This document shows, piece after piece, positions 1-23,400 of a stretch of DNA of 64,000 nucleotides. The position numbers and the translations under genes are program-made. The notes under the pieces are model-generated. The model did not search any database and was not told the origin of the DNA. It saw only the letters and a list, made by a program, of their open reading frames with translations. Position 1 is the first letter of the stretch. Each line of letters begins with the position of its first letter. The DNA comes from Haplodiscus bocki. Lineage: Eukaryota. Where the stretch lies: the NCBI GenBank assembly GCA_965655095.1, contig OZ296649.1:94860001-94924000 (forward strand). Reading direction: 5' to 3'.

Positions 1-2076
1 GAAGAAATTGCAAATTTTTTTATTTCTCCGGAACTTTCGCTTCGTTGCCTTCTCATTTTGCTTTTCAGCCAAAAACGCTTTGAAAACCAATACAAGAGGA
101 GCGGTGTATCAAATATGTCATAAATTCTGATATATTTCTCTGAAAAGGTTTTTTCTTCCGCGAAAGTGGCTAAATTTACGAATTTTGGCAATTTGTCTTC
201 CAGATCGTCTTTGTAACTAGATACAGCTAAACGAAATAGATTGTCTTGAATTTTGAGAATTCTCTGTTTCCCCAAACTTTCATGCAACAGGGTACTTGAT
301 TTGTTCCAGAGTCAATCTGAAACTGGGATAAATTGCAATTTTCCATACAGTTTCCTTTGCTTGCTAAATCAGCCTTTTGGCTACAGTTGAATCAGGTTGA
401 GTTGCCGCCCAATTGCTACAAGTTCGTCGATTTTCATTACAAAATAATCACCTCTGTGAGCCATGAGAGAGCCTCCTTGCTCACGAGGGTCTTCATCATT
501 GGTATGGTTCTCTAAAGAAAAACTTCATATGTAACAGAATTTTCTTCATGGAAGTTGTTATGCTTTCTCATTGACATCAAAATTTTCCAGTCGGTACCAA
601 AAATCCAATGATTGCTTTATTAAACAGTCTGGAAATTTCTGGTTTTCCTGCTGCGGTTGCGAATTCCTTTTCGAATATCTTAGAGGTTTTCGTTTTTTAT
701 GTATTTTCTCCCACTGTTCCATGGCTACTGCTGTTCCAAACCTTGGAAACTGGTCAAGGTTGACTCTCCAGCTTTGCTCCTGTGTGAAGCTAGCAAACGC
801 CAGCTTGTTACGGTCGACCCTTGTTTTTTTCGTATCGTTCACAACTCGCAATGATTGCGTAATGTTACTGGCTTGTTTTCTGGCCTCTGATTTTCATCCC
901 ATTTTCTTTGCATGGTACTGATCCCTGAAGCATATATATTTTCATCAAGTCAGGCAAAGTTTGGAAATCTTCCTGTAAGGTGCTTTTTGTGACCAAAAGG
1001 CTCGAGAGGAAACTATTTTCGGTAGGAGATTCACGCTTGCGAAAATTCTCAGCTGCTCAGTTACCATCATCAGTTTGACGAAACTGTCTCGAACTGGAAT
1101 TGTTTTTCCCTGAAAAATTGGGTGCTAGTTGCGAAGAATCTCCTGACTTTTGACTTGAACTTCTTGAAATTTTCAAATGCGTTTTTTTATTCGAATCCAG
1201 TTTTTTACATATTTTAGATTTAAGCCATCCATTGAATGTTCATCAACTAATCGGTCGAAAGACGTGTCAGGCAACAGATGGCTTGCTGTATGGTTCTTTG
1301 GGTTTAAAATCTGTGTTATAGTTGCTTTTTTGCTGACCAAACACCCTAAAAACATTTTCTTCTGAAACATCAAATTTTTGGACTTCATCAGATATGTTCA
1401 TCCCCTGAGTCTCATTTGATTTTTTGCCGAAGTTGTTGGAAACTTTTCAACGTCAAGGGTTTTTTAATCTACAGTTTTCCCTAGTTCAACTCGACTTGTA
1501 CTCCTAATATCGGATATATGCCAGAATTACACCTTTTTCCGATAGTGTTCATTTAAAATACCTAGGTGTGGCATTGGGGTATCTAGTGTGCAATGCGGAA
1601 CATTCGCCGAGTGGATTTTCTAGCAAGCAGCATTGGTGAAACATTGCTTAATTTTCCCTGGATATAACTAAACTTGTGATAGGAAAATTCACTTCATTTT
1701 CAATTGCGTCCTTCATTGGGCATTCCATCTGAAAGAATACCAATCGACAGCAGCTATCTACTTCTAGTTCAATTACCTTCGATTCAAGGAAGCTCAGCTG
1801 TTCAGGGCTGGTGATAGTGTCTTTTTAGTTTTTGCCCGCGAGTTTTTGACGTTCGTTGAAACTTCAACTTCGTTTTTTTTCAAGGTCATCCTTACGTCGC
1901 TTTCATTATTTTCAGAAGTCTCTATTTTTGGATACTGGGGTGATTTTAGGAATCGGTTTCTTGGTTGAATCTGTGTGACTTCGTTTCCTTTTTTCATATA
2001 TCTGAGGAAGTATCGAAAATTGTTTTTCCTTCTTTCAGAACTTCGAATTTTCAGTCCTGTTTTCAGTACTTATGTT

Positions 2077-2985
2077 AATAATATACTATAATGCGGATTT
2101 ACCAGTAACTCGCCTGACGGCTCCTTACTAATAAATCCGTCATTATAGCCGTTCCCTACGCTTCGCTCCGGTCACTTATATTATTGCTCAGCTGTTTGAG
2201 CTTCGCCTTTTCGTCTCGCATAAAAGATGATATTAACGTAAAAATTTACAAAAACTGCTCTTGCTCAGTGTACCGTCCTAGCCATGGCCGCATCACTGGA
2301 GACAGTTCCCCCTCTATACCAAATTAATGGCAAGACAGTTCCTCCGGAGAATCACAGGTAGTGAATGACAAAGACTGGGGATACGTATTAAGTAGTGAAC
2401 CCCAAACACTACGGCCGCAAAGCCTTAACTTTTATCGATATCACTCACATACCATTCAACAAGCGGAGACAAAATAAAAGGAGACAAACTCGAATAAATA
2501 TACATCATTGGTATGTTATGACAACATCAACGATACTAGTGAATTTTTCACTTTCATATATGTCGACATCCTTAAACATGTACAGATTATAAAATTTTAA
2601 GCTACAAATACAGATGATATGTCGTTAGAAAGCCCGTCAAAAGTTAAGTATACCCTGAAAATATCAACATTGTATCTATTATAATCTTTGAGAAATTTGA
2701 CAAAAACAGTATATGTCGACATCCTTAAACATGTACAGATTATAAAATTTTAAGCTACATATACAAATGATATACCATTCAATAGGTCGTTAAAAGTTAT
2801 GTAAACCCTGAAAATTTCAATTTTGTATCTATTATAATCTTTGAGAAAATTGATAAAAACCCAAAATGACGTCATTTTTAAACATGTACAGATTATAAAA
2901 TTTTAAACTACATATACAAATGATATACCATTCGATAGCTCGTTAAAAGTTATGTATACACTGAAAATTTCAACTTTGTATCTAT
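2077..2985 (+). repeat. Left TIR, near-perfect part (degenerate homology continues to ~3352)
   Basis: Reverse complement of 19514-20422; 5 mismatches and no indels in 909 bp by manual comparison. Confidence 0.96.
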
Positions 2986-3170
2986 AATATTCTTCGAGAA
3001 AATTGACAAAAAAAGTATATGTCGACATATCTTAAACATATAGAGATTATAAAGTTTTAAGCTACTAATATAATTAAAATATTTTTGGATAGCTCGTGAA
3101 AATATTAGTGTATGTTGAAAATTTCAACCTCGTATCTATTTCCATTTTCGAGAAATTGACAAAATAGTAT
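2555..3170 (+). repeat. Four ~153-bp tandem repeats inside the left TIR (mirrored at ~19330-19945)
   Basis: AAACATG/A anchors at 2574, 2727, 2880, 3034; each unit has a palindrome (ATGTCGACAT or AAAATGACGTCATTTT). Confidence 0.9.
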
Positions 3171-3250
3171 TTGTAAAAGTATAAAAGAAAAATTATAAAC
3201 AAATATTCATACAAATATACATATAATTATACTATTATTTGTATAAGAAT

Positions 3251-3760
3251 TCATGTAAGTATACCTGGATTGTTATATAAAAACCATTGACGACAAGCAA
3301 ATTGAAATGGATTATTTATATCATTACAAAATGTTTGTATATAATCACGATTTTGAGCAAGGTTTTTAAAAAATTGACGATGTAGAGGAGATGCACCTAA
3401 TCTGAGATGATAATGTATATTTATATGAGATAGATTACTTAGAATTTTTATTTTAAAATTATTTATTTGATTAAATATATAACCATTTTCTCGAGCATTT
3501 TTAATTTTTTTATTTAAACCATAGAATTCAGTTTTAAACTCCATCGATCTATGAGTAACTGCAAAATTGACTTCTTCATTATTAGAAATATTTTTAAAGC
3601 AAAGATCATAAATAATTCTATATTCAAATGAATGAAAATACTTTTTTCTACAATCTTTAATAACATCATCGAGTATATAATCTATTTCATGAATATCTGT
3701 CTTATCAAATTCATATTCTTTAACAACAATTAACTGATTTTCGTTCGTCATATCGTTCAT
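3251..3760 (-). CDS. Polinton accessory protein, 169 aa, unknown function
   Basis: Intact ORF with TAAATG start; paralogous sequence at 18075-18452 and 19141-19242. Confidence 0.8.
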   Translation of the reverse strand: MNDMTNENQLIVVKEYEFDKTDIHEIDYILDDVIKDCRKKYFHSFEYRIIYDLCFKNISNNEEVNFAVTHRSMEFKTEFYGLNKKIKNARENGYIFNQINNFKIKILSNLSHINIHYHLRLGASPLHRQFFKNLAQNRDYIQTFCNDINNPFQFACRQWFLYNNPGILT

Positions 3761-3839
3761 TTATTATATATGATTTTGTTTAAATAAAAATCTTTCAATA
3801 AAAATTATATTAAAATTGAATTAGTTTTCATATATTTAA

Positions 3840-4298
3840 ATGGGGTATTGGAAATATTTAATGATGGAATCAGAATCTCCTAGATTTTGTTTGTCGACTG
3901 AAGATTATAGAGAAGAATGTGAAAAGCGTGATTTTTATAAAAATATAGGAAATATTCACGCTAACATAATCGAAGAAAAATTGATCCCAGATTGGTTTTA
4001 TTTAAATTTACCTTATTGTGACGAATGTAAAAAATATATAGAGTTTGTAGATGGTGTATGTTCTAATTATCAATCACATAGACTTTTAGTTACATGTAAT
4101 TATTGTCAAAAAGATTTTAGAACATTTAATGATAGACAAGTAAGATGTTCAGTTTGTTGTCAATCAATTGAATGTAAATTAAAAACATACACTTTTGAGA
4201 AATTAAAAAAATTAGCTAATGTATATAATATAAAAAGAAGAAAACAAGAGTTTATAATAGATGATTTAGTACAAAAAGTTGAAAATTATATCATTTGA
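3840..4298 (+). CDS. Cys-rich zinc-finger protein with a possible C-terminal SAP/helix-extension-helix-like domain, 152 aa
   Basis: CDEC, C..H, CNYC, CSVC motifs; C-terminal LKTYTFEKLKKLANVYNIK..KQEFIIDDL; TAAATG start. Confidence 0.7.
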   Translation: MGYWKYLMMESESPRFCLSTEDYREECEKRDFYKNIGNIHANIIEEKLIPDWFYLNLPYCDECKKYIEFVDGVCSNYQSHRLLVTCNYCQKDFRTFNDRQVRCSVCCQSIECKLKTYTFEKLKKLANVYNIKRRKQEFIIDDLVQKVENYII

Positions 4299-4672
4299 AT
4301 AGGTAAAATTATATTTTTCTGTACAAGTATATCAATTGTAACACATACAAGTATACGAGTAATTATACTTTGGTATATATACAATTATATGAGTAGTTGT
4401 ACATATATTTCTCATTTGTGTTACATACAATTATAAAATATGGATACATACTATTATACTTGTACATATACCTATGTATACTTACAATTATATGAGTAAT
4501 TAAACATTCATTAACATTATGAGATATGAATAATTATATGAGTATTTATACTTAGTTATACTTACAATTATACGAATAGATATTTGAGTATTCATACTAG
4601 GGTTATACTTACAATTATACGAGTAAGTATTATAATTATAATAACGGTTGGGTTTGAATAGGTGTATAGATA

Positions 4673-7600
4673 TTATATTTCATAATAAGGAAGCATATGA
4701 CCAAAATCATTTGGTTTTCTTCGTTTTAATTCATTTAAATTAGCTTCAAATTCTTTGTTTTCATTGATTTGATTATTACAAGTTGAACATAATATTCCAT
4801 CTTTACATGCATTACATTGTCTCATTTTTGTTGGAATTATAACTCCATTTTCGAATGATTTTTTCCAAGATCTCGGTAGTATAGCTGTTATTTTTTTACC
4901 TTTTAACATATTAAAATATTGAGATCGATCTAATAATCTTTTACTATCATTAAATCCTTTAAAGGTCATATGCTGTTCAATAACACCAAGTTCATTAATA
5001 GTTAGACAATATTTTATTTTAGGAGCTAAGAATAAACCGTAAAATATACCGCCTGTTTTATAATCATTTTTACGTTGACATAAATTTTTACCTACTAAAT
5101 TTGCTTTATCTAATACATCCCAATATTTTTTTTCTATATACAAGCTATCCGTGTCTCCATAGTATATACTATTATTATAAAATCCGTTTATTTCTCTAAT
5201 AAAATTGTTCATAATCCGTTTACTATTACTTAATATAAAAGCTCCTAAATGGCTTGGTAATGTATTTTTGACGTCGTTATCACCTTCTAATCCATCGTCC
5301 TTTTTTAATTTTACGATATAATTTCCGTTTGGTAATTTCCAATAATCTAAAACATTTTCATCGTATTCCGTTTCCATCCAACGTTGTGATTTACATTTAT
5401 AAGATTGATCAATGTCTTTGCGTATCTGAACTCCATACAAACTGTTCATGATTAATTTAACTAGTCTTTGCATTAAATCATTATGTTCGTCTTTATATTT
5501 TTGTCTTAAAGAAAATAATTGTTCTATAACTTTTCTAAATGGTGATATCTTAAAGTTTTCTCTATAAAGAACTCCCTCGTAAATTTCAATCACTTTTCCT
5601 CCTATTTTAACAATTTCACAAATATCAACACTAGTTAAAGTATCGATAATATAACCATTTCTCATTCTATTAACTTCAACATTTTTAACTTTTTCTTTAA
5701 CTGGGAGATGTTGATATATAAGATCAGGAGGATTATAATATTTTATTGTTAATATAGCAGATTCATCACCATCTTCGTTAAATGTTTGATTGTTGAATGC
5801 TTCTACATAAACATTATTCATATGTGGTTTAAAGGCAAATCCACTTTCTATTTTAGGATACACTGATTTTTCATCCCACATAGCACTTGGGTATAGACTT
5901 GTAGCATCAAAATCCATCATAACATCGTTAACATCTAGTTTTTGTAATTTTTTGTGTATTGGTAGTTTATTAAGTTCTTTGTTAATATGTTCGGTTCTTT
6001 CTTCCTCATCGTTATTTCGATAGTCTTTAAATTTCGAATCATATTCGTTTTCTATTATCTTTCTTTGTTTATTTGTATATTCAAAATATTTATCTATGAT
6101 TTCACAAACATTATCATTATCGTTAACATTTAATTCTTTTGAAATAATATTGAATGCTTCCTGTGAAATATTTGATTTATAATATTGATTTAAAGCTGAA
6201 CAACGACCTCCTTTTATACTTTTTCTAACAAAATGTCTCATAAATTCATCGTCATAAGTGTAGATTGGTTCATCGCTTTCATCTCTTAAACTATTAAAAT
6301 ATTTATTTGCAAGAGACGGCAAAGTCAAACAGTTTTTCATCCCAAATCCAGTTAATACTTCCATTCCTTTTGAATACCTAGCATAAGAGAAAGCTGTTGA
6401 TAACACATCGTTTTTAAGATAAGGTAACCACTCATTTTCTTTTTTTTCCCAAGTGTCTTCGAAAATTTCATCGTGTTCTAATTCTTGTTTAAGTAAACTT
6501 TCTTGTAATTTATAACATCTTCCTATATTTTTTAGGGAATCTTTAATATGTAATAATCCACATCTCAGATGAACATATTGAGGTATTTTTTTAACAGGGT
6601 CTACATAACCGTTGAATATTTTAAGAGATACAATACCTGATCCGTTTTTGATTAATTTAGAAGTTCTCCAATGAGGTAAATTGTTTAATACAACATAACT
6701 ATCGAATCCCGATCCTTTGTGTGCTATCAAGTATAAATTATATTTAACAATTTTGTTATTAATCCGTTTTGCTTCTCCTTTGAATTGTAAAACATAGTCT
6801 AACATTTTGTTAATATTATCTAATCCTTTCAAAACAATACAATCATTTAAACACTTTTGATATTCTTTCTCTGATATATCTCGATAATATTTACCTGAAA
6901 TTTTACTTAATCTATATATACAATTAGCATAAGGAACACATTTGATAGTACTAAAAGTTTCTATATCATAAACAACCACGTTAGTTAATTGAGATTGAAC
7001 TTTTTTAGGTTTGTATTCATATTTAATAAAACTTTTAACATGTTTATCAGATATGACATTATCAACGACTCTAAAGTTATCTTTTAATTCTTTTATTGCT
7101 TTTTCAAAGCTAACGTGATCTGATTTCCAAATTAAACAGAAGTGATTATTATGTCTTTTTAATGCTGTATTTCTTTGTGTAATATTTCTAGGACACACCC
7201 TAAAACCATCATAACAACCTATATTGATATTATGCTTTCTACAGAAAGGTTGAACTCTAGCAGATGTCATCACATTTGATCTTCTTTGTTCTGTTCGAAT
7301 AAAGGTTAAAAATTCTTCTGTATAATCTTTTTTAGTAAAATAATTGATACATTTGATAAAACAATTACCACTTGTAGGAATATAACAATTATTGCCTATA
7401 TATTCAACAATATCTTGTTTAAAATCTGTACCTCTACCATATTGAGATCTGTTTACTTTTTTGAATTCAGGTGTATTTAATTTATACAACCATCCTGTAA
7501 AAATAACATCTTCACTATCATAACCACTGTTATCTATAGCATTAATATAACTTTCGAAATCATCGACATTTTTAAACCTAATATTTGTTTTTTGTTCTAT

Positions 7601-8009
7601 CTCACCAACCAACATAGATCCAATTAATTCAAAATCACCTGTATAATCTTCTAAAATATCATTTTTAATTTCATGTAGATTTAACCCGTTAACATATTGT
7701 CTATCAGTTGTTGCTAGTTCAAAAAATCTACCTATGTTAATGTCTTCTACCACATTTTCTCTTTTCTGCCTTCTTTCATTTTGTTTTGTTTCCTTATTTG
7801 ATTCATTTTGTTTTCTAATCAACTTTCTTCTTTTATTTAACTCATATTCTTTTTTCTTTTGTAATTTCGTTGTCTTTTTTGTTTTTTGTAATTGTTGATT
7901 ATAATCGTCATAGTTTTCTTTAATTTTTCTAATTTCTTTTTTATTTTTTTTTTAGTTTATCCCTATATCGTTTTTCAGTTAATCGAGTTTTGTTCATTAC
8001 ACTGTCCAT
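4673..8009 (-). CDS. polB: Protein-primed family B DNA polymerase (putative terminal protein + vOTU-like + exonuclease + polymerase); +1 frameshift in T10 at 7944-7953; ~1111 aa repaired
   Basis: Exo YDIET, HKGSGFD, YLKNDV; Pol DFDATSLYPSAM, KLIMNSLYG, YGDTDSL; removing one base from the homopolymer extends the frame to a TAAATG start at 8009 (MDSVMNKTRL...). Confidence 0.93.
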
Positions 8010-8067: not shown

Positions 8068-8460
8068 ATGGACACTAAAATATGTACTATTTGTACTATT
8101 GAAAAAGATATCAACAACTTTTACAAAAAATATACAGAATGTATAGACTGTAACCGTGCAAGAGGACTGAAACGATATTATGAAAATAAAGATAAAATAT
8201 CAAATCAACAAAAAGTATATTATGAAAAAAATAGAGAAAAAATATTATTACAGAAACAAAATAATAGAAGTATTCAATTTAGAGACTTAGTTATATCTTA
8301 TATTGAATTAGAAAACAGATTAAAAACATTAGAAGAAAAATTGAATGTTTACAAAAATATAAATGACTCAGAAAAACATCAAAATATTTATAAACGAAAT
8401 TTATTCCAAACCACCAAAAAAGAATTATATTACAAACAAAACAGATGTTTATCATATTGA
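8068..8460 (+). CDS. CxxC..CxxC zinc-ribbon/coiled-coil protein, 130 aa, overlapping the integrase start
   Basis: CTIC..CIDC; TAAATG start; N-terminus resembles that of the ATPase. Confidence 0.65.
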   Translation: MDTKICTICTIEKDINNFYKKYTECIDCNRARGLKRYYENKDKISNQQKVYYEKNREKILLQKQNNRSIQFRDLVISYIELENRLKTLEEKLNVYKNINDSEKHQNIYKRNLFQTTKKELYYKQNRCLSY

Positions 8461-9220
8461 TGACATTTGGTCTCTTGATATTTTAGACTTAAAAGATTAT
8501 GGTCCTGAAAATAATAGAGGTTACAGATATGTTTTAGTAACCATAGACAATTTCAGTAAATTTGGATGGACAGTTCCTTTAAAAAATAAAAAAGCTCAAA
8601 CATTAAAAGACTCTTTCGAAATAATTTTAATAACTTCAAAAAGAAAACCTGGTTTAATCGAAACAGATCGTGGAAAAGAATTTTATAACAATATTTTTCA
8701 AGATTTCTGAAACAAAAACAATATCAAACTTTATTCTAGAAATACTTATTTAGGTGTTGTTTTTGCTGAAAGATTTAATCGTAGTATCAGAGACCTTCTT
8801 AAAAAGATCGTTTTCGAACAAGGTGATGGTAATTGGATTGATATTTTACAAACAATAACAAAACAATATAATTATAGAATACATTCATCGACTAGGTTGA
8901 CACCAATACAAGCTAGTTTAAGGAAAAACGAAGGTTATGTTTACAAAAATTTATTAGACAAACGAAAGAAAATCAAACCAAAATATGAAATAGACGATTT
9001 AGTTAGAACGGCAGATTTAAAGAAAACGTTTTCGAAATCTGACACGACTAATTGGTCTTATAAATTGTATAAAATTACAGAAATTGTTAATGATACTATT
9101 CCAAGTTATAAAATCGACAATTTACCCGAAAGATATAACGAATCGTTACTGAAAAAGACTGATTTAACATTAAAAGAAAACAATACTGTCATGAAAAAAT
9201 TAAAAATTGATATTGTATAA
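8363..9220 (+). pseudogene. int: Retroviral-type (rve) DDE integrase, 285 codons, one in-frame TGA at 8708-8710
   Basis: WSLDILD, ETDRGKEF and, after the stop, FAERFNRSI; track ORFs 8363 and 8897 share one frame with open sequence between. Confidence 0.93.
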
Positions 9221-9287: not shown

Positions 9288-10541
9288 CTAACTTAAATCA
9301 AACATTCGTTGTCCATCGCTGGTTATACTTATTAATCTATTTGTCAAAACTAAAGCGTATCCATAAATTCCAGCATCAATGTTTTCTGAAAATTTAAATT
9401 CTACTTTGATGGGTTGAGCGTTTTCAAAATCTTTCTGATATCGTATATCGAAAGCGTATATATTATACCCTACATCATTATTATTATTAGACGATCTAAA
9501 ATCGTTTTCACTTATATATGGTTGGAGTAAATCATCTTTTGTTAAAGCTCTAAAAGTTTCTTTTATTTGACCATATCCTTGACTATAATCATCGTCATCA
9601 TAATTTAATAAAATACCAGAATCAGGATACCGTTCTGTTCCGATAACGACTTGAGCAGATATCACTGGAAGCCTGACAAAAGTGTCGTTGTTTAAATTTT
9701 GATCGTTTTGTCTATCATTTTGTTGGAATGCTACAAAAATATACATTGGAATATTAATACCTTCTTGTGTGCCCAGTTCAAAATTCCAAACATTTTGAGT
9801 ATTCACTTCTTTCATGAAAACTGATCTTTCTGGATATTGAATTTGAGTAGGTGTTTTGTTTAATATTTGTTTGGATAATATATTTTGTTGTTGCACGGAA
9901 GGAGTATAATGGGGTACGTACCATTCTAAAGCATTAATTTTAACTTTACCGTTGTTGATCGCATTACCTTTATTTAAAACAGCGTTGTCAGTATTTCTTG
10001 TTAATGTTAATTTATAACCGAGCCCATATGTACCTTTTTCTTGATATTCAGCAAAACCAAAAACATCTTTTAGATAAATTCTAATATGATATTTCCCTTT
10101 TATATTTTTGTTATTAGTTAATTCATTTCGTCTTCTAGTGCGATCACGATCAAAACCAATAGACAAATCATCAGATCCTTTACTCGATGATAATAACTTA
10201 TACATTAATGATACTATATGACCGTGATCAATATTTTCTAGATGTTTTCCCGAAGACGTTGTTAGCTTATAATTACTAAACAAAGCAATAGGTCCTAAAT
10301 TAACTAACCTTATATCGTTACCGTCTGCATATCTGTTATTGGGAGCAGCAGCATGTAATACATCAAAATTTAATTCAAGATAACTGTTTAACAATGAAAT
10401 AGCACTGTCCTCTCTAGGTATATTAATATATACTTGTGAATTGGCAGTATTTATTGTACTTATTTCAGACGGTGAGTATCGTATATAATCACATTTTAAA
10501 ATGTCTCTGTTAATTTCATATTTCCCACTTAGTTTAAACAT
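9288..10541 (-). CDS. Major capsid protein (double jelly-roll), 417 aa
   Basis: Size, beta-rich composition, Polinton-MCP-like motifs (SYLELNFDV, YLKDVFGFAE, LEWYVPHYTPS, PMYIFVAFQ, ERYP) and position in the structural block. Confidence 0.85.
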   Translation of the reverse strand: MFKLSGKYEINRDILKCDYIRYSPSEISTINTANSQVYINIPREDSAISLLNSYLELNFDVLHAAAPNNRYADGNDIRLVNLGPIALFSNYKLTTSSGKHLENIDHGHIVSLMYKLLSSSKGSDDLSIGFDRDRTRRRNELTNNKNIKGKYHIRIYLKDVFGFAEYQEKGTYGLGYKLTLTRNTDNAVLNKGNAINNGKVKINALEWYVPHYTPSVQQQNILSKQILNKTPTQIQYPERSVFMKEVNTQNVWNFELGTQEGINIPMYIFVAFQQNDRQNDQNLNNDTFVRLPVISAQVVIGTERYPDSGILLNYDDDDYSQGYGQIKETFRALTKDDLLQPYISENDFRSSNNNNDVGYNIYAFDIRYQKDFENAQPIKVEFKFSENIDAGIYGYALVLTNRLISITSDGQRMFDLS

Positions 10542-10610: not shown

Positions 10611-11459
10611 TTATTTGTTTAATAGATCACATTTAATTAAAATTTGTTTATGTTGTTTCTTAGATATGCATTTGTATTCTAATAATTTATCAATTATAAC
10701 AATTTCATCGTTAATTATATCAGAATTATTACCTGCATGTTTTTCTTGTAATAATAATTTTAATCTATCACATAATTCATCAGGATCAGATGATAAAAAT
10801 ATTGTATTCGAAACACCCAAAGCCGTGATAGCTGGTGAGTTAAGTAAAGTTATTAAAGTTCTGTCTCGAGTAGATTTGTTACCAACACGGCTTTTATCAA
10901 AATTCATTTCTTTTGCAAAATCAAACATTAATTTTTTATCTGATAAACTAGCAAGATCTACATTATAATTTTTATTAGTTATCATTTTTAAAAGTTCTCC
11001 TTTTAATTCGAATACTTTACCTGATTCACGAAATGTTAACAAATTATTATGTAAAGTAATTGGTATCGAGTTGTGTATTTTCAAATCATTAACTCTATTA
11101 GATGAAGGATCTTTTTCTAACTTAAATTGGGTTGTATTTTCAGGATTAGTAATTTTAGATAAAGGACTTATCAAATAACTAGCCAAAATTCCTCTATCAT
11201 TCATGATTTCTAAAAGTTTATTGTTTAAATTCTCTAGTGCAAGGTTATTGTCTTTAGAAGATTCTGTTATAGCTTTTGTTATATTTTCCGAAGTATTGTT
11301 AAGTGATTTAGTAACAGGTTCAAAGACCTTTTTTATGTCTTCGTGAAAATTTTGTTCACCTAATTTGTCTTGTAATTTAACAACTTTTACTTGATTTTGT
11401 AATAAAGCTAACTCTTCTAATTTTTCTATATCTTCTCTATCTTTTATTGAATATAACAT
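10611..11459 (-). CDS. Conserved Polinton protein of unknown function, 282 aa
   Basis: Intact ORF between ATPase and MCP; helical C-terminus DPDELCDRLKLLLQEKHAGNN recalled from Polinton hypothetical proteins. Confidence 0.7.
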   Translation of the reverse strand: MLYSIKDREDIEKLEELALLQNQVKVVKLQDKLGEQNFHEDIKKVFEPVTKSLNNTSENITKAITESSKDNNLALENLNNKLLEIMNDRGILASYLISPLSKITNPENTTQFKLEKDPSSNRVNDLKIHNSIPITLHNNLLTFRESGKVFELKGELLKMITNKNYNVDLASLSDKKLMFDFAKEMNFDKSRVGNKSTRDRTLITLLNSPAITALGVSNTIFLSSDPDELCDRLKLLLQEKHAGNNSDIINDEIVIIDKLLEYKCISKKQHKQILIKCDLLNK

Positions 11460-11468
11460 TTGAAAGAT

Positions 11469-12221
11469 TTAAAAAGGTTTCGTCTGAGGTATTGCTTCTA
11501 AATATGTGTTTTTACTTTCATTACAAATGCAATATTTTCCTTGATCTCTCTTTTTAGATCTATCAATATAAAGATAATTATAATCATCCTCCCACGATTT
11601 TCTACATAAATCTTTAAATTCGTCGTAATTCATATCATATCCTGCGACATCTCTATATATATGTTCAATATCTTTTAACGTTTGATTAAACAAAATTATT
11701 TTGTTACTATTATTTCTTATTGTTCTTTTTGGTAAATCAAAATAAGATTGTGATAAATAATAAATATCTAGATTATTGTGTCGTCCTCTAATGAAAAATT
11801 GATCTATAAATCTACTATTTGTTGAACCTAAAACATCGTCAAAAACTATAATACCATTTTCATATTCGTTTAGAGGTTTTATTTCATCGCTTATTTCTCT
11901 AATTTTGATTTTAGAATTGGTATATTGTTCTGGGGGTGATTTAGTGATTATATAAATATCTCTATCTGATATACGCGAAAGAATTTTTAACATCAAATAT
12001 GTTTTACCCGAAAAAGATGGACGGACTAATAATGTTCGATTATTATTTTCAAATTTTGATTGTTTGTTAATGTTTTCGATAATTTTATTTGGAGGTAAGG
12101 TGTTAATATTGATTTTTCTTTTCTTTTTATTGTAACATTCCCTACAAATCGTTCTATCTTTCTTGTAATTATTTATATCTAATTTTATGTTACATGCAGA
12201 ACAATTTTTATTCTTATCCAT
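11469..12221 (-). CDS. A32/FtsK-like genome-packaging ATPase with N-terminal zinc ribbon, 250 aa
   Basis: Walker A RPSFSGKT (first Gly replaced by Arg), Walker B IIVFDD, RGRH and SQSYF motifs. Confidence 0.92.
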   Translation of the reverse strand: MDKNKNCSACNIKLDINNYKKDRTICRECYNKKKRKININTLPPNKIIENINKQSKFENNNRTLLVRPSFSGKTYLMLKILSRISDRDIYIITKSPPEQYTNSKIKIREISDEIKPLNEYENGIIVFDDVLGSTNSRFIDQFFIRGRHNNLDIYYLSQSYFDLPKRTIRNNSNKIILFNQTLKDIEHIYRDVAGYDMNYDEFKDLCRKSWEDDYNYLYIDRSKKRDQGKYCICNESKNTYLEAIPQTKPF

Positions 12222-12360: not shown

Positions 12361-12893
12361 TTATAAAAAAGATTCATTTTTGTATTCATCAACATATCTA
12401 GTAAAAATATTACAAAGATTTTCATATTCGGTTTTATCGATAATATTATCTTGTAATGATTTTCTGTATAATTTATCAAAAGATTTAATAGTATTTTGAT
12501 CTCTTTCATATTGTTTTTTGTATTTATTGTATTTGTTTATAATTAATTTGTGTAATATTTTGTTACCTAATGATAGACCACAAGCAATACCAGCTGATAT
12601 AGGCAAAACAATTAAACCAATACCAGTAACCGATAGAGTTATCGATGTTGACGTTGCTCCGATAATAACGATGCTGTCTATAGATTCTAATATTGTGTTT
12701 AGAGTTTTATAATTTTTGTTTTTCTTTTTTGATTTGTTGTTTTTATCTTTGAAATAGGTTATCATTTCTTTGATGTTACTGATATGGTTATTGAAACTGT
12801 TAACATCATTTATTTTTTTTCTAGTCTTTTTTCTAAATCAATATTTTCTAATAACGGTGCTGATGGGTATAATTTATCTGTCTTTACTTCCAT
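12361..12893 (-). pseudogene. Putative membrane protein (~177 aa repaired) with LYPSAPL motif and hydrophobic hairpin; -1 frameshift in T8 at 12813-12820
   Basis: TAAATG start at 12893 gives MEVKTDKLYPSAPLLENIDLEKRLEKK; adding one A joins it to track ORF 12361-12765 (IVIIGATSTSITLSVTGIGLIVLPISAGIACGLSL). Confidence 0.75.
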
Positions 12894-12931: not shown

Positions 12932-13346
12932 TTAAGTAAATCTAGGTAAGTATAAACCTTTACCGGTGTGATAAAACGTTATCAACTCTGGCAATGTTGA
13001 TAGAGCTTGTTTCGAATTTCGAGAAGCAGCTGCTGTTGCTATTTTTGTTGTCAAATCTAGGGCTCTTCCAGGGTTGCTTAAAACGTTTTTTGCCATCTTT
13101 TTTGATGCATTAAGTCCTTTTTTACCTAGATTTTTGAAGAAATCGCCGAGACCTTCTGCTTGAATAACATTATCAGAAACAATCATTGTTTTTTTTTCTA
13201 TTACAAATCACACATTTTCCGACTAGTAATTTAACATCTTTACCAGTTTTTTTATTGATAGTCATCTCTCCAACTATGTTTTTTGTAGCAGATCGATGTC
13301 TACCTCCAACACAATATGAATCACTTTTAAATTTTTGAAAGCTCAT
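12932..13346 (-). pseudogene. Small basic virion-like protein (~137 aa repaired), Cys/His N-terminus plus amphipathic helix; +1 frameshift in T9 at 13189-13197
   Basis: TAAATG start at 13346: MSFQKFKSDSYCVGGRH...GKCVICNRKK then TMIVSDNVIQAEGLGDFFKNLGKKGL. Confidence 0.72.
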
Positions 13347-13387: not shown

Positions 13388-14506
13388 TCAGATTTTAATC
13401 ATTTGTAATGTAAATGTCAACGTTTCGCCGTTAAAATCAACTTCTTTGTTATTATCATCTTCTAAATAAAATGTTATTGTATTCAAAACAGATTTATTTA
13501 TTTTTTTATAATGAATTGTTTCAGGTTCGCAAAAAACTTTATAACCACTTGGTTTGTCTCATACAAAACTAAACAGAATAGGCTGTCTTATCCCATCTTG
13601 AATACTACCATCGATAGCGTCGCATTTCAAATGAATTTTATCTATTGTATTTATATTTAAAATAAACTTATCGCTAGGGTAAACACCTGGAATAAGAACA
13701 TGATTAGAATTGTTTGGTTTATAATCCCAATATGGTGAAAACCCTAATAAAGTATGAAAAAAAGATTGCTTATCAAATCTCAATGTTCCTAAAGCAAACT
13801 TCTTTTTTCCATCCTTGAATTTTAAAACAATTGTCACTCTCTTGGTAATATCATCATATACTAATTCTATAGTCACTTCATGTCCACTGAAAGTTTCAAT
13901 AGCGTCAGAAATATCTTGTATTGTGTAAATTCCAGGAGTTAATTGGTAAGTGATAAAATGTGAATTATATTCTTTTAAAATTAACTGAATATCTTGTTCA
14001 TCTAATCCAATAACAAGCCTCAAATAACTCTCAAAATCTCGAAATGATGATGCGCAATAACCAAATAATAACATTATATAACCATCACTATCTCTCTTTT
14101 CATTTGATAGTCTAATATATTCATCAATAATACGAGGTCCTAATATTTCATCATTGAGATGATCATCCGTAATGTGTGAGATATTAAGAATTTCTTCGAG
14201 CTCATCTTTTAATTCTAAAAATCCAAACTTATCATCTTCACCTCTGTAAATATCGAATTTGTTATTTTCTTCTGTTATGTTAAAAATAGAATTATATACT
14301 TCTAGATTAACTAATCCCAACATCCAATCTCCTTTAACCTGAATTGGTGGTTTGAAATGAAATATTTCTCTTGGTTTAGTCATTTTGAATTCCAATGTTT
14401 CTTCTGGTTTTCTATGAGTCTGTTCAATAAGTGTTTCACAATTTTTAGTAATGGATAATAATAAATCTTCTGTTTCATTTTTAGGATGAATCATATTTAA
14501 GTTCAT
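13388..14506 (-). pseudogene. Minor capsid (penton-like) paralog B, 372 codons, in-frame TGA at 13559-13561
   Basis: After the stop the frame continues DKPSGYKVFCEPETIHYKKINKSVLNTITFYLEDDNNKEVDFNGETLTFTLQMIKI*, colinear with the C-terminus of paralog A. Confidence 0.82.
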
Positions 14507-14603: not shown

Positions 14604-15668
14604 TTATATTTTTATTAATTGACATGTAAAAGATATCGTTTCACCATGAAAATCAACAGGTTTGTAATCATCGTCTTCAAAATAAAATGTTATGTGAGAT
14701 AGAACAGATTTATTCACTTTTTTGAAAAGTTTGACTCTAGGTTCTTTATATATTTTATGCCCAGGTGAAGACAAAGCAAAACTGTACAAAATAGGTTCTC
14801 GTATACCGTTAACGATAGATCCATGTATACAATCACATTTTAAATGAATTTTGTCAATTCCTGTAATGTTAATTGGTTTATCGCTTTTATACGATCCTGC
14901 TATCAATTGATAATGACTATCTATATCATCTAACGGATAAGATCGTGATTGTGTAAAACCTAAAATTGTATAAAAGAAAGATATTTCAGTAAATATTAGA
15001 GTTTGATTAATTTTTAAATTTGATTTTAATCCAATATCATCTATTGTAATGTTTACTTCTACATTATCAGGTAGAATATGTTTTAAATTATTATTTAAAT
15101 CGTTAACTTCATAAATACCCGGATTCAAACTATATCCGGTTCTTTTTGTAGGAATATATTTCAAGTCTAATATGTTCATAATTTCATCATAAGATAGTCG
15201 CATTCTATGAACTAAATCTTCAAGATCATTGTATTTAACATTTTTTAATTCTTGAAGTATCTCATATTTTTGATTATCAAAGTCTGATAATTTATATTCT
15301 TTGTCTGCTATTTTTATTTTATTTCCTCTTTTTTTAACTTCTACATGTAATCCAAGAGATTTAAGCTCTAATAATTTATTTAGATCGTTAATAGTTTTCT
15401 CATCGGTTTTATTTTGGTAATGACCTGGTATGATGATTGAAAACGAGTTATTATCATCAGTTACATTAAAAACAGAATTAGTACACTCAAGAGAAGACAC
15501 GGCAATTAACCATCTACCTTCTTCAACCAAATTTATTGGTGGATTAAACGAAAATGTTTGCATTTGTTTATTCATTTTGAATTCGAGTGTTTCTTGTGGT
15601 TTTGTCCTTGTTTGTTCAATCAAAGTATCAGTGTGTTTTTTAATTAAAAGTAATAGTTCATTATTCAT
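14604..15668 (-). CDS. Minor capsid (penton-like, single jelly-roll) paralog A, 354 aa
   Basis: NSVFNVTDDNNSF, PGIYE, IHLKCDCIHGSIVNG..PILYSF, ITFYFEDD..VDFHGE motifs typical of Polinton minor capsid proteins. Confidence 0.8.
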   Translation of the reverse strand: MNNELLLLIKKHTDTLIEQTRTKPQETLEFKMNKQMQTFSFNPPINLVEEGRWLIAVSSLECTNSVFNVTDDNNSFSIIIPGHYQNKTDEKTINDLNKLLELKSLGLHVEVKKRGNKIKIADKEYKLSDFDNQKYEILQELKNVKYNDLEDLVHRMRLSYDEIMNILDLKYIPTKRTGYSLNPGIYEVNDLNNNLKHILPDNVEVNITIDDIGLKSNLKINQTLIFTEISFFYTILGFTQSRSYPLDDIDSHYQLIAGSYKSDKPINITGIDKIHLKCDCIHGSIVNGIREPILYSFALSSPGHKIYKEPRVKLFKKVNKSVLSHITFYFEDDDYKPVDFHGETISFTCQLIKI

Positions 15669-15723: not shown

Positions 15724-15930
15724 CTATTTTGTAAGTATACCAAATCCACTAGCTGTAAAATCTTTAACAAATTTTTTATTTTTTTTTGAAAATTTTTTGT
15801 TTTGTTTACCTCCTCCTAAAATAGGTTGAGTTTTTTTATTTTTTGTCGTGGTTTGTTTAATATCTTTTGTTTGTTCACTTTTTGGGATATATCTAACACT
15901 ATTATCAACAGTTATTTTTCTCAATACCAT
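15724..15930 (-). CDS. Small Lys-rich protein, 68 aa, candidate core protein
   Basis: TAAATG start; very basic; ILGG/G matches the adenain cleavage consensus. Confidence 0.6.
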   Translation of the reverse strand: MVLRKITVDNSVRYIPKSEQTKDIKQTTTKNKKTQPILGGGKQNKKFSKKNKKFVKDFTASGFGILTK

Positions 15931-15953: not shown

Positions 15954-16367
15954 TTAAGAAAATCTTTGATAATACAAATTCAAAACAGAAGATTTAAAAT
16001 CAAAACCTAATATTTTTGTCAAGTAAATTATATATAAACAATAACTAGCGCAATAACTATCATTTTTTTGTATTTGATATTCTGAATATAAACAAAATCC
16101 ATTTCGTTTTATAATAAATTTAGATAATTTCTTTGGACAAACACAACCATATGAATCAAAATAGCTTTCGTTTATGTAGCAAACCCAATGAGTGCCTGTT
16201 GATGGGTGTAGATTAACAATACCAATATCAGATTTAAAAGGTCCGTCTCTTAAATAGATTTCAATATCATTCAAAGATAAGAATGAAAGGACTTGTTGAA
16301 TTTTTAGATTTGATGTTGCTTTATTTTTTAATTTATATTTTTCAATAAACTCATTAAACGTCATCAT
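15954..16367 (-). CDS. Adenain-like cysteine protease, 137 aa
   Basis: GTHWVCY (His), YFDSYG (Asp), QIQ..SYCASYC (Gln/Cys). Confidence 0.93.
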   Translation of the reverse strand: MMTFNEFIEKYKLKNKATSNLKIQQVLSFLSLNDIEIYLRDGPFKSDIGIVNLHPSTGTHWVCYINESYFDSYGCVCPKKLSKFIIKRNGFCLYSEYQIQKNDSYCASYCLYIIYLTKILGFDFKSSVLNLYYQRFS

Positions 16368-16826: not shown

Positions 16827-16847
16827 TTAATATATGAATATATTTAA

Positions 16848-17186
16848 TTATATTTTTTTGTTCATTTGTTTTTTCATCCTAGTCATAATTAAATTAGCTC
16901 TTTTTTCATCATCAATATCTTTTAATAGCTTTGCCTTTGATTCTTCTAACCATTTTTCATCGTAATCACCTATTTTGTTTTTTAAAGTATCATTTTCTGC
17001 AGATAGATCAACTATATCATCACCTAATAAATTAAAAGCTTTTTTAATAGCTGGCATCATGCTGACTAACTGCTCGCCTTTCTTTGCTTGAGTTGTTAAA
17101 GATTGTTGGTTAAATTCTTTGAGATCTTGAATGGTATCATTTCTTACTGTTTTATCATTAGAGCTCAATTGCATGACTAATTCCAT
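16848..17186 (-). CDS. Hypothetical coiled-coil protein, 112 aa
   Basis: Intact ORF, TAAATG start, co-oriented in the gene block. Confidence 0.7.
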   Translation of the reverse strand: MELVMQLSSNDKTVRNDTIQDLKEFNQQSLTTQAKKGEQLVSMMPAIKKAFNLLGDDIVDLSAENDTLKNKIGDYDEKWLEESKAKLLKDIDDEKRANLIMTRMKKQMNKKI

Positions 17187-17256: not shown

Positions 17257-17691
17257 TCAAATTTTATTATTCTTGAGAATTTTGTCTAAATAGTGTTCAT
17301 TAATTTCAATATTCTCTTGTACAGCACCACCTTTCAATTTGTTCTTTTTATTTTTAACTGTTTCGTTTAAAGTCGTCTTGAGGTCATTTGAGGTCATTTG
17401 AGGTCTTTTGAGGTCACCGATATCATCGATTTTAGCCTTTTTTGGTCGTTTTTTGGTGTTATTTGGGTTAATTCGGTATGGTGAAAGCATATTTATATCG
17501 TTTCGATATCTTTTTATAGTAGAAGAGGACATGTTTAATTGAGATGATATCTCTGATTGTGTCATTTTTGGATTCTGATATTTGATATTCATGAAATCAT
17601 TCATAAGTTTCAATTTATAATATTTAGTTAACATATTAGGATCCATTGCAGAATTTTTATTTATTTCGTTTAAAGAAGGAGTATTATTCAT
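17257..17691 (-). CDS. Helix-turn-helix DNA-binding protein, 144 aa
   Basis: MTQSEISSQLNMSSSTIKRYRNDI HTH pattern; NLS-like KKRPKK; LKGG/A site. Confidence 0.75.
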   Translation of the reverse strand: MNNTPSLNEINKNSAMDPNMLTKYYKLKLMNDFMNIKYQNPKMTQSEISSQLNMSSSTIKRYRNDINMLSPYRINPNNTKKRPKKAKIDDIGDLKRPQMTSNDLKTTLNETVKNKKNKLKGGAVQENIEINEHYLDKILKNNKI

Positions 17692-17902: not shown

Positions 17903-18085
17903 TCATATATGAGTACAATTTTTTATATGAGTATAATTTTTAATATTGTATAATAAAACAAAAAATAAAAACACAAACATAATTATAACGATTAAAATTA
18001 TAAATATTTTAAAGTATTTGTTTTGTTTCTTTGTGTTATCAACAAAAATAATGTATTCTTCAAGTAAATTCGTTTTAATATTCAT
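17903..18085 (-). CDS. Small single-pass membrane protein, 60 aa
   Basis: TAAATG start; 20-residue hydrophobic stretch IFIILIVIIMFVFLFFVLLY preceded by basic residues. Confidence 0.5.
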   Translation of the reverse strand: MNIKTNLLEEYIIFVDNTKKQNKYFKIFIILIVIIMFVFLFFVLLYNIKNYTHIKNCTHI

Positions 18086-19141: not shown

Positions 19142-19242
19142 ATCGTGATTATATCGAAACTCATTGTAATGATCATAGAAATACTTTTCATTTTGCTTGT
19201 CTCCAATGGTATTCATATAATAATCCAGGTATACTCACATGA
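19141..19242 (+). pseudogene. 3' relic of a paralog of the 169-aa gene
   Basis: Translates NRDYIETHCNDHRNTFHFACLQWYSYNNPGILT* vs NRDYIQTFCNDINNPFQFACRQWFLYNNPGILT* at 3251-3352. Confidence 0.85.
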
Positions 19243-19513
19243 ATACATATAAAAATACTAGTATAATTATTTTTATATTTGTATGAATACTTTTTTGTAA
19301 AAATATAATTGTTTATATACTTGTACAAATACTATTTTGTCGATTTCTCGAAAATGGTAACAGATACGAGGTTGATATTTTCAGCGCACACTAATATTTC
19401 AACGAGCTATCCAAAAAAATATCACACTTTGTTGTAGCTCAAAATTTTATAATCTGTACATGTTTAACGTATGTCGACATTTTGGGTTTTTGGCAATTTT
19501 CTCGAAGATTATA

Positions 19514-20422
19514 ATAGATACAAAGTTGAAATTTTCAGTGTATACATAACTTTTAACGAGCTATCGAATGGTATATCATTTGTATATGTAGTTTAAAATT
19601 TTATAATCTGTACATGTTTAAAAATGACGTCATTTTGGGTTTTTATCAATTTTCTCAAAGATTATAATAGATACAAAATTGAAATTTTCAGGGTTTACAT
19701 AACTTTTAACGACCTATTGAATGGTATATCATTTGTATATGTAGCTTAAAATTTTCTAATCTGTACATGTTTAAGGATGTCGACATATACTGTTCTTGTC
19801 AAATTTCTCAAAGATTATAATAGATACAATGTTGATATTTTCAGGGTATACTTAACTTTTGACGGGCTTTCTAACGACATATCATCTGTATTTGTAGCTT
19901 AAAATTTTATAATCTGTACATGTTTAAGGATGTCGACATATATGAAAGTGAAAAATTCACCAGTATCGTTGATGTTGTCATAACATACCAATGATGTATA
20001 TTTATTCGAGTTTGTCTCCTTTTATTTTGTCTCCGCTTGTTGAATGGTATGTGAGTGATATCGATAAAAGTTAAGGCTTTGCGGCCGTAGTGTTTGGGGT
20101 TCACTACTTAATACGTATCCCCAGTCTTTGTCATTCACTACCTGTGATTCTCCGGAGGAACTGTCTTGCCATTAATTTGGTATAGAGGGGGAACTGTCTC
20201 CAGTGATGCGGCCATGGCTAGGACGGTACACTGAGCAAGAGCAGTTTTTGTAAATTTTTACGTTAATATCATCTTTTATGCGAGACGAAAAGGCGAAGCT
20301 CAAAGAGCTGAGCAATAATATAAGTGACCGGAGCGAAGCGTAGGGAACGGCTATAATGACGGATTTATTAGTAAGGAGCCGTCAGGCGAGTTACTGGTAA
20401 ATCCGCAATATAGTATATTATT
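19514..20422 (-). repeat. Right TIR, near-perfect part (degenerate homology continues to ~19141)
   Basis: Reverse complement of 2077-2985; identical 65-aa spurious ORF on both sides. Confidence 0.96.
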
Positions 20423-23400
20423 TATGTTTTCACTTGTCAGAGTTGGATTCTGGGTTGATAGCTTCACTGAGATCCACTCTGGGTCTGTGTCCCACTTGTG
20501 CGGGTGGAGCGAGTGAGAGCAAGTGTATAATGGTCGGCCAGCTTTCCGTGTCTATCACTAACTCGCAAAAATTGGTTCTGGAATGTATGCGTCATTACAT
20601 CGTCTCACTGCTCTTTTAGTCGCTGTGGCGTGTGAAAGATGTTGTGGAGTTTCTTTGATCTGTTTGCTCGTTGCATCATGCAGTTTTTCATGGGTAGGAA
20701 AAAATGCAACATCGAACCCTACGGTGTTTTTTTCGGCCAAAATGCTATTTTCAGAGAAATCGAGTTTCCAAGGTCGGCGCGCGTTTTTGCCGCGTTCACA
20801 ACTCGCTTTCAGCATTCAAAATATAGCTTTTTGCCGCAACGAATGTTTAGCATTTTCATTCTAAATGAAAACTGATCTGAAATTTATGCCTTATGTTCGC
20901 CGCGTTTTAAAATTTTTAGCAGAATAAAACGGATCTTTTATTTTTCAAATTGAACTAAACCTTCGGTTATCAACAAATTCGCCCAAATTTTCGGTGTCTT
21001 GCCCACCGAGTAAACATTTTTGCGCATAATTTGAAGAAGTCAATTCTAACGTATACTCGCTCGAACTTTTTGTGTTCTTTTGAGAAAACTGCAAGCTTTT
21101 AATGTACAAAATTAGCTGAGTTGCGATGTCTGATGGAAATTTTGACGTACGAACCATCTCTCCAGCTGTGCAGAAAACAAAGATCAATGCGAAGCGTTTG
21201 GTTTTGAGGATTGTTTTGGAATTTGAAAGTTGTTCGGAAAAGCTTGTGTTCTTACTGTTTGAAAGTCTGTCGAAATTCGCTATTTTCCAGATTCTCTCAA
21301 TTTTTGTAATTTCCTCCTTATCAACATTCTAGCTGCTGTCCCAAGTAATAAGATACAGAACCGCATCTTCAGATCTTTACAGTGGGTTTTCCTACAATTC
21401 TTCCTTAATGAGGTTTTCTAGTGGCTCAAGTGGTGTTTTTGATGCTATAAATTAGACCAAAATGTGCTAGTATAGCAATGTTTCCAGTTGTTTCCCTTTT
21501 GCGTTCCATATCAGCTTTCTAGCAAGTAGGCCATGTAAATATGATATTGAAGAAGAAATTCAGAAAAAATTCCCAAAACTTACAAATTGGGGTTATCGGT
21601 GGTTCAGTATCAAAGAGAAATAGCGTTTTTTTCACTTTCGGGACACTTACTGCTCTATCGCATTCTTAATCTGCTTCTTCGCAGCAAATGAATATTCAAC
21701 AAATCTTCATGATATGTTAATCTTTTTGGTCTTCAATTGTTGTTTAGGTGGATAAAGTAGCCAATTTGGCTATTGTACCATGGTTTTGGGTCTGTTGCCT
21801 TCAGGATAAACTACACGGGCAGCAAAATTAAAAAAATGAATGGTCAGTTTTGACGAATTTTTCAGATTTTTGAAAGTTCATAACAACATGATACTCTTGT
21901 TGCCTCAGACTTGGAAGTTATTTTAGTTTCTGTCCATTTGCTTTCCCAATTAGTCTGTCTCTGCAATTGTATCAGTAGGATGAAAGAAACATGCTTCTTG
22001 TCTGTACAATTTCTTCAGATTTCATTCTCGTATAGCAATTTTCTTTCTGAGAAAGTGCGAGCAACCACTTGTCCTAGGGCCTCTATTATTTGGTTCACGT
22101 CTCGAAGATCTCCTAAAACGTCTTCTGAGAAAGTTGCATATTTCTAGATTTTTCAGATCTTTGCACTATCGGGAGAAAAGAAGTCTACAGTTTCTGGGAA
22201 TGATCCCAAAAATGATTTCTAGACAGTATGGTAATTTTTAGGTTTTTAATGAGGTATAAATTTGTTTCGATAGTTTCGCATTTTTTCGACACGCTTTCCG
22301 ATCTTAATGATTCTTGCTTTTCCAAGTTTTCGGAAAACTGGAGGAGTTTAATTTGTCAGCTTTGCAAAGCTCCGCTTCGCCCTTAAAATCTGGGAGCTCT
22401 AGGGTTGCAATCGCATTCTGTACCAACTGAGATATTTCCTCTCGCGCATTGACAATTTCTTGTTAAATGTGAAGCGAATTATTTGCTTATAGCTTCTTTA
22501 TACAGCTTTTTTAACACTTGATATAAATATGTTTACACTTTAAACAAATATATAATTACCTAAGGTATTGAATTCTATACACTTGTTTAATCAGTCATAC
22601 TCGTAGTGCCATGGCCCCTTCGGTAATCAGTTATACTTTTCGATTTGCTCACTTGTGCTCCGTTTGCGCACGTGTTGCGAAGCCCAGCTTCGGCTCTGTG
22701 TAAAAGAATTTTCGGCGATCTCAATAGTTGTTCTATTTGTTCGTCGGATTGGAAGAAAAACGTTTTCCCAAAATTATATATAATTTTCTTTTTCATTAGT
22801 GCATTTCGAAAACTTTTAAAAATGCACGTCAGTAACTTTCCTGGTAGTAAGTTTCTGGCTCAATTCAGTTTGGCTCCTATCTTTATGGATCATTTTAAAT
22901 GAATTCGTCTAATGACCGCTGCAGTTGAATGTTTCTTTTTTATGTTTCAGAGTGCTCCTGCCCATCTGTACAGGGGTGCAAGAAGGTTCACGCCGTACTG
23001 AGTCAAGTTTCGAGGCATCATGCAAAATTTGAAAAGCTAATGACACATTTGGGACCTGAAACACAAGCATAATTTAATAGTAATATAGTAAAGTCGGTAT
23101 AGGATTTCAAAAATATATATTTGTACAGAACTCTTTTTAAATGAACAATGCTATTAGGGTTCATTCTTTTGTGCAATATTTGTTCTTTTGATTAAATGAA
23201 ATCAGATTATTTTAATGAAATTTAATTTCTAGATTGTTCCAAATTTGGTACAATGTTTTTTATTTATGGTCACAACGTAATTTATTACCAGGGTATAAAA
23301 TAATGCAAAAACTGTTGAACTGAAGGGCATTGATTCAGCTGTTTATTTTTCTGGAATAATTTGCATTATTTTATCTAGTTCCTCATACCACATGTAGGGA

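Follow-up and report, generated by a model that had tools for sequence, protein, structure and literature searches.

The element and its genes

The stretch of DNA considered here (the window, 64 kb of contig OZ296649.1 from the 1.5-Gb assembly of Haplodiscus bocki, to which all positions refer) carries an 18-kb element, from 2077 to 20422, bracketed by TATGTT hexamers, which by the features tested is to be classed as a Polinton, its protease being a candidate suggested by motifs and its terminal motif being AAT rather than AG/AGT. The target-site duplication is perfect and the terminal inverted repeats show exactly five mismatches in their first 909 bp, as a preliminary description made from the letters had stated. 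These repeats are 96% complementary over 1,110 bp, with a degenerate continuation of the left match up to about 3353, and each contains four copies of a 153-bp unit (2560–3182 and 19310–19939). Both termini consist of the trinucleotide AAT given twice, of neither the AG nor the AGT type; AATAAT is the form that accompanies lineage A of the four polymerase lineages met with below, lineage C ending in AGTAGT. The element has a G+C content of 26%, against 38% in its flanks.

Twenty genes lie inside it (Table 1), in keeping with the twenty or so announced beforehand, and the Pfam matches above the curated cut-offs comprise pPolB (PF03175), rve (PF00665), the double-jelly-roll capsid (PF21738), the A32 ATPase (PF04665) and PF13412. 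The polymerase, integrase, capsid and ATPase matches, with the penton fold described next, agree with the earlier view of a Polinton endowed with a virion module. For the major capsid protein PF21738 was the sole capsid family matched, with no virophage-type capsid, and a sequence search of the PDB returned no capsid. One minor capsid gene had been announced; two paralogues stand there in tandem. A fold model of paralogue 2 built on a 140-row alignment (predicted local distance difference test, pLDDT, 65; a single-sequence model reached only 33 and was not used) has the mavirus penton as its best PDB match (E 3.7e-4), its other matches being viral minor capsids and the TM-scores being low. By this modest model the 14604–15668 protein may be read as a single-jelly-roll penton, and the 13388–14506 protein, by paralogy with it, as another. 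The protease of the preliminary description is the member of the module that found no match in either Pfam or the PDB: the 15954–16367 product is likely an adenain-type maturation protease on its conserved motifs, His, Asp, Gln and Cys being kept in at least 90% of 21 copies. The product of the 12932–13346 gene presumably resembles the membrane-active proteins of adintoviruses.

Table 1. Features of the Polinton at 2077–20422 (aa, amino acids)
Feature	Position	Strand	Basis or remark
Left target-site duplication, TATGTT	2071..2076	+	direct reading
Left terminal inverted repeat, terminus AATAAT	2077..3186	+	core 2077-2985
Conserved accessory gene, 169 aa, open	3251..3760	-	
Accessory gene, 152 aa, CxxC pairs, open	3840..4298	+	missing in some siblings
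Protein-primed DNA polymerase B, lineage A, frameshifted	4673..8009	-	PF03175, E 2e-20; catalytic motifs present
Small CxxC protein, 130 aa	8068..8460	+	ends at 104 in most siblings
Retroviral-type integrase, stop inside catalytic core	8363..9220	+	PF00665, E 9e-9
Double-jelly-roll major capsid protein, 417 aa, open	9288..10541	-	PF21738, E 2e-11
Conserved core gene, 282 aa, open	10611..11459	-	sole start without TAAATG
A32-type packaging ATPase, open	11469..12221	-	PF04665, E 9e-7; Walker A deviant
Conserved membrane protein gene, frameshifted near codon 26	12361..12893	-	177 aa in siblings
Conserved gene, cysteine pairs and amphipathic stretch, frameshifted near codon 50	12932..13346	-	132-139 aa in siblings
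Minor capsid (penton) paralogue 1, putative, stop-broken	13388..14506	-	35% identity to paralogue 2
Minor capsid (penton) paralogue 2, putative, 354 aa, open	14604..15668	-	predicted fold
Small basic protein, conserved	15724..15930	-	
Candidate adenain-type maturation protease, 137 aa, open	15954..16367	-	conserved residues
Conserved gene, 135 aa	16419..16826	-	137-151 aa in siblings
Conserved gene for a helical protein, 112 aa, open	16848..17186	-	
Helix-turn-helix protein, 144 aa, open	17257..17691	-	PF13412, over cut-off
Small transmembrane protein	17903..18085	-	
Accessory gene, 125 aa	18075..18452	-	minority of copies
Accessory gene, 180 aa	18599..19141	+	
Right terminal inverted repeat	19313..20422	-	core 19514-20422
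Right target-site duplication, TATGTT	20423..20428	+	direct reading

Complete in the coding sense, as had been supposed, the element is not. Judged against its siblings, five of ten core genes are broken (polymerase, integrase, minor capsid 1 and two conserved genes), and by the definition of an intact Maverick used in PMC8097293, which asks that all core frames be uninterrupted, it is not intact. Integrase and minor capsid 1 are cut by in-frame stops (8708–8710, within the catalytic core, and 13559–13561); the polymerase is frameshifted near codon 19 in a run of ten T (7944–7953), and the 12361–12893 and 12932–13346 genes at runs of eight and nine T, siblings for the most part having single frames there. 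None of the sequencing contigs listed over the stop codons bridged the stop. The Walker A motif of the ATPase differs at one position conserved in 55 of 57 sibling frames, and in the conserved columns of 14 genes we count 16 letters private to this copy, 14 missense, two nonsense and none silent, a ratio biased by the fact that silent columns vary among siblings and are dropped by the filter. Because half of its core genes are broken, this copy is to be regarded, on its sequence, as dead, a disabled integrated element.

Its terminal repeats have diverged by 0.55%, with three differences in their first 600 columns; six of the 17 nearest paired siblings show no difference over those columns, and two none over 1,000, in line with the recent activity that had been proposed for the family. 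Set against siblings with identical ends, the copy is middle-aged within its family. Of the five terminal differences one corresponds to a variant that is frequent at other places in the genome, so that part of the divergence may predate insertion; if the rate is taken to be 1e-9 to 1e-8 per site per year, the copy is perhaps 0.3–3 million years old.

A family of thousands in one genome

A 22-mer of the capsid gene, allowing up to one mismatch, is found at 2,771 sites of the assembly (reversed control 0), and we may reckon with about 2,800 related copies in this one genome, beyond the vertebrate maximum of 287 copies (PMC8097293); at least 100 of the capsid genes are 90% identical or more. The siblings that the preliminary description expected were met with, the terminus of lineage A being present as 733 exact 30-mers, those of lineages B and C, likewise as exact matches, 767 and 908 times (reversed controls 0), and a polymerase 22-mer of this copy at 432 sites. 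A looser motif of terminus A has 3,184 sites, which exceeds what one would expect from lineage A's part in the capsid loci (five of 20), so that non-autonomous or deleted derivatives may be common. The sample comprises 70 copies: the 20 nearest by terminus, the ten nearest by capsid, and two sets of 20 taken in positional order, one by terminus and one by capsid motif. All 20 of the positionally chosen capsid loci carry polymerase and integrase, some in pieces, so that Polinton sequence may make up as much as about 50 Mb, or 3%, of the assembly; this is a ceiling, since small contigs may be haplotigs. Among the resolved pairs of three samples the 6-bp duplications are perfect in 15 of 17, 17 of 20 and 12 of 13, and intact siblings, also foreseen, do exist: in two of the 39 copies with terminus A that were scored, every one of the ten core frames has its full length. 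The copy in the window is itself ordinary; the population is what is notable.

Two irregularities of the siblings should be recorded. Six of 20 positionally chosen copies (L061/62, L069/70, L073/74, L075/76, L081/82 and L099/100) combine a perfect 6-bp duplication with ends only 82–94% alike (7–18% apart), most of these ends resembling other copies more than their own partner, a situation that fits recombination before integration and chromosomal conversion alike. In three further elements (L110/L111, L112/L113 and L119/L139) outside DNA is inverted at both flanks, without target duplication, the inverted copies spanning 1.5 kb at 99.9% identity, at least 2.9 kb at 99.2% and about 0.4 kb; this is perhaps the trace of repair begun in the terminal repeats and running into the flank, or an assembly error.

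Mosaic genomes with matched ends

Along the element, identity to any single sibling varies from about 70% to 99%, and the nearest copy changes so often that 17 different copies among the 70 are nearest over 27 tiles. Pairwise distances show a rank correlation of 0.14–0.65 between genes that adjoin and of about 0 between most genes that lie far apart (the polymerase row rests on 11 copies and is noisier); linkage between genes dwindles over a few kilobases. The polymerases fall into four lineages, A (this copy), B (40% identical to A), C and D, the latter two without any significant BLASTP match to A; both carry an endonuclease VII-like insert (L049:2184-5855 and L053:4029-6893), and in lineage D the gene lies in the opposite orientation, three D elements sharing the left end AGTATATG. 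In the positional capsid sample, lineages A to D account for 5, 6, 6 and 3 of 20 loci. Among the ten copies whose capsid is nearest (95–98% protein identity), nine carry a polymerase of lineage B, C or D; the integrase is common to the polymerase types (83–93% protein identity); and on a capsid DNA tree of 41 rows polymerase type needs 18 changes, against 20.7 when shuffled.

The ends, which lie across this shuffled interior, follow the polymerase. All 35 ends found in 26 elements of lineages A, B and C match the polymerase type, among them all 14 far ends, situated at least 10 kb from the polymerase beyond unlinked genes, and polymerase A is present in every one of the 40 elements selected by terminus A. 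Selection has left its mark at the same time: the ratio of non-synonymous to synonymous substitution (dN/dS) is 0.12–0.45 in 37 of 38 gene-by-distance bins over 13 genes, and 0.22 in the major capsid gene even among pairs less than 3% apart; the virion genes are under purifying selection. Lesions of the major capsid gene, 20 sites in 16 broken copies, are never shared (the comparison covers nine genes, with the polymerase left out as lineage-B genes were aligned to lineage A). Taken together, mosaicism, coupling of terminus and polymerase, dN/dS and private capsid lesions point to functional linear genomes that replicated freely and recombined before being integrated.

Poxvirus-type signals

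Nineteen of the 20 genes of this copy start with TAAATG, a context present at eight of 251 other sense ATGs and at 41 of 1,484 ATGs of the flanks, and siblings retain it in nearly every gene class. Coupling of stop and start codons was considered as its cause and rejected, the upstream stops of the core block lying at least 10 bases before the start. In vaccinia virus the late initiator is TAAAT(G/A) and the early core is AAAANTGAAAA (PMC5294985). Most replication-side starts are preceded, 10–40 bases upstream, by a TGAA(A/T) string (12 of 14 polymerases and 20 of 34 integrases, for instance), which stands before none of 33 major capsid or 38 protease genes; these counts are not independent, the copies being related. 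TTTTTNT is the poxvirus early terminator: in four polymerases, one per lineage, it is found twice against 13.1 times expected, and none of 500 shuffles was as low. Avoidance does not extend to AATAAA, with 48 sense-strand occurrences in the genes of this copy against 48 expected. Neither among those genes nor among the 22 gene clusters of the family is there a multi-subunit RNA polymerase of the element's own.

Weighing the explanations

We may then read the locus, with a probability of roughly 0.6, as a disabled Polinton copy whose source was a pool of linear genomes, free and able to form virions, which underwent recombination ahead of integration and were transcribed with the assistance of a poxvirus-like helper. 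The parts of this reading deserve separate credence: that we face the dead copy of a recombining, freely replicating population appears highly probable, and the least certain part, that a poxvirus-like helper supplied the transcribing RNA polymerase, is for us an even bet. Many genomes would replicate in one cell and exchange segments, each polymerase lineage priming only at its own terminus (AAT or AGT repeats); after a crossover the near end would serve, by way of a panhandle, as template for the far one, or genomes with unmatched ends would fail to replicate. The integrase would insert the product, producing the 6-bp duplication, and the integrated copy would then decay neutrally. Because it has poxvirus-type signals and no RNA polymerase of its own, an 18-kb genome of this kind would need a helper as virophages do, and joint activation of many integrated copies in the helper's factories would also explain free recombination. 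A bolder version, which we put forward tentatively and incline to doubt, would see the roughly 2,800 copies as proviruses of a single recombining, poxvirus-dependent, virophage-like population, in which four polymerase-origin cassettes compete for a shared capsid pool; the helper's cytoplasmic factories would be the place of its reshuffling, and the whole might serve as an inherited defence against viruses.

Free replication could also do without a helper. An autonomous nuclear polintovirus population that recombines, forms virions and is transcribed by host RNA polymerase II, with TAAATG as a host-type or element-specific initiator, would fit the mosaic, selection and coupling results equally well; the element has a helix-turn-helix gene, profile searches for VLTF3 and rpo22 disclosed no trace of a helper, and coral polintovirus genes are expressed with no known helper (PMC11131425). 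We nevertheless hold it to be unlikely, for TTTTTNT is avoided in the four polymerases, AATAAA stays at its expected level, and a T at position -3 runs contrary to what we take to be the usual eukaryotic start context. Still less probable is an intragenomic transposon burst followed by gene conversion between chromosomal copies. Thousands of similar copies would offer ample donors, the three elements with inverted flank duplications tell us that chromosomal repair does act on these repeats, and discordant ends with perfect duplications fit as well; conversion among dead copies, however, would not keep far ends matched to the polymerase in every case, nor swap non-homologous polymerases along with their ends, nor yield a dN/dS near 0.2 in close capsid pairs. 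That the copy of the window is in fact intact and competent, its breaks being errors of assembly, is very improbable indeed: three of the five breaks do lie in homopolymer runs and are seen again in one or two further copies, but the other two are substitutions to stop codons, accompanied by 14 further private missense changes, the lesion load is consistent with the terminal divergence, and most siblings are broken too, at other positions.

A number of observations nonetheless weigh against the reading of a recombining, helper-dependent population. As to recombination in a free state, polymerase type shows slight clustering in the capsid tree (12 of 200 shuffles needed no more changes), one lineage-D element has a far end of type C, and the closest integrase pairs, four in number, give the sole exceptional bin, with a dN/dS of 4.5; the six copies that join discordant ends to a perfect duplication imply that copying of the ends is not obligatory; and since the sample covers 70 of about 2,800 copies, private lesions are compatible with gene conversion too. 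As to the helper, this copy taken by itself shows no significant depletion of TTTTTNT (41 of 300 shuffles gave a count as low), and avoidance is absent from the integrase and present in a capsid gene (0.20 against 2.54). Lineage-C polymerases start without TAAATG, and early genes use it too, of which a strict early/late cascade has no need; the TAAATG figures compare starts within this family and its flanks, with no unrelated animal Polinton as control. The VLTF3 and rpo22 searches of the genome were blank, without a positive control; no poxvirus RNA polymerase subunit was seen among the 22 gene clusters of the 70 copies; and no relatives were found in viral contigs. Metagenomes contributed one related contig, 85% identical and also with TAAATG, too close to serve as a control.

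Relation to known systems

With Polintons or Mavericks (Polintoviricetes, including the adintoviruses of PMC8502044) the element shares pPolB, rve, the double-jelly-roll capsid, the penton, the A32 ATPase, the likely protease, the terminal repeats, the 6-bp duplication and the 18-kb size. It differs from these in its AATAAT termini, where vertebrates have the types (AGT)2, (AG)3 and (AC)3A (PMC8097293), in its two tandem pentons and in its TAAATG starts. Exchange of the virion module between polymerase lineages has already been proposed for adintoviruses (PMC8502044). The nematode pPolB1/pPolB2 Polintons (10.1101/2023.08.22.554363) are alike in that distant polymerases, one with an inserted endonuclease, occupy otherwise near-identical elements; there the termini are conserved and, as reported for C. 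briggsae, non-polymerase genes remain strongly correlated, whereas in H. bocki linkage fades between all genes, there are four polymerase lineages and the termini change with the polymerase. Expansions in stony corals reach similar figures, up to 2,686–2,802 capsid genes per genome against 2,771 here (PMC11131425); the main text of that account does not contain the word recombination. In the present case a single 22-mer is found across the loci, which draw on one gene pool.

Replication and morphogenesis modules also reassort in the mosaic Polisuviricotina, a study of dereplicated genomes across lineages in which replicase and integrase are linked (10.64898/2026.10.13.758929); here, shuffling takes place within one host at 95–99% identity, and the integrase is common to the polymerase types. 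Mavirus and the endogenous mavirus-like elements (EMALEs; PMC8547959) are likewise integrating elements with terminal repeats, pPolB and rve, and provide the penton fold match; their promoter motif matches that of the helper giant virus, and one recombinant EMALE is in print (PMC8547959). The capsid is here of the Polinton rather than the virophage type, no helper is known, and dependence is a prediction only. In insects, polinton-like viruses associated with entomopoxviruses have been proposed as hyperparasites of poxviruses, an account whose available text has no promoter analysis (PMC11296320). Polymerase swaps (Jeong preprint), cross-lineage mosaicism of modules, module transfer in adintoviruses and poxvirus-associated polinton-like viruses in insects are therefore already in print. 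In a search that left most subscription papers outside, we found no published account of linkage that decays at the scale of genes together with four polymerase-terminus cassettes in a single host, though preprint supplements may hold similar cases, none of AATAAT termini or TAAATG starts in Polintons, and none matching a helper plus promoter in animals.

Whether animal Polintons live as viruses is a long-open question, and according to PMC8097293 no virions of vertebrate Mavericks have been seen. One genome with thousands of dated insertions from one recombining population offers a population-genetic test of free replication, to be read in ends that match after crossovers, in selection on the capsid and in lesions that stay private. 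Should the poxvirus-type starts be functional, an undiscovered large DNA virus is to be predicted in this host, and the virophage style of life would reach animals beyond insects. For such families a word of caution is in order, as dating by terminal repeats and classification by a single gene mislead.

Flanks and accessory features

No near-identical second copy of either flank and no empty site was found in the assembly, and the paralogues of the flanks are too old to reveal one, the left flank being an old repeat 65–67% identical to its paralogues. In four runs (two samples of one study) a contig continues from that flank unbroken to 2099, with 23 letters inside the repeat where 31 are needed for bridging, a weak hint that the insertion is present on all sampled chromosomes. 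Neither RNA nor an episome of the element was met with, which says nothing for or against its expression; small shares (0.05–0.16) in other sequencing runs, some labelled coral metagenome, carry no information about habitat. As to the decayed retroelements reported nearby, none of eight pieces of flank open reading frames matched a retroelement family in Pfam. A GC-richer stretch at 38000–51000 contains short frames that we take to resemble decayed Ty3/Gypsy reverse transcriptase, and Pfam gave no support for a retroelement there.

Many other small accessory genes near the ends of the family's elements are without any match, and a rare one, L115:5516-6256, in two of the 70 copies, has a weak match to GNAT acetyltransferases (E 0.001). 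In the copy of the window a 48-bp direct repeat (96%) at 18517–18564 and 19140–19187, with an inverted copy at 3320–3360, flanks the 18599–19141 gene, which looks as if it sat in an exchangeable cassette. Finally, a family of AT-rich, partly palindromic intergenic motifs, resembling ATATGAGTA, recurs at 4349–4579, 14529–14604, 17190–17265 and 17734–17941; these are possible binding sites for the helix-turn-helix protein of the element.

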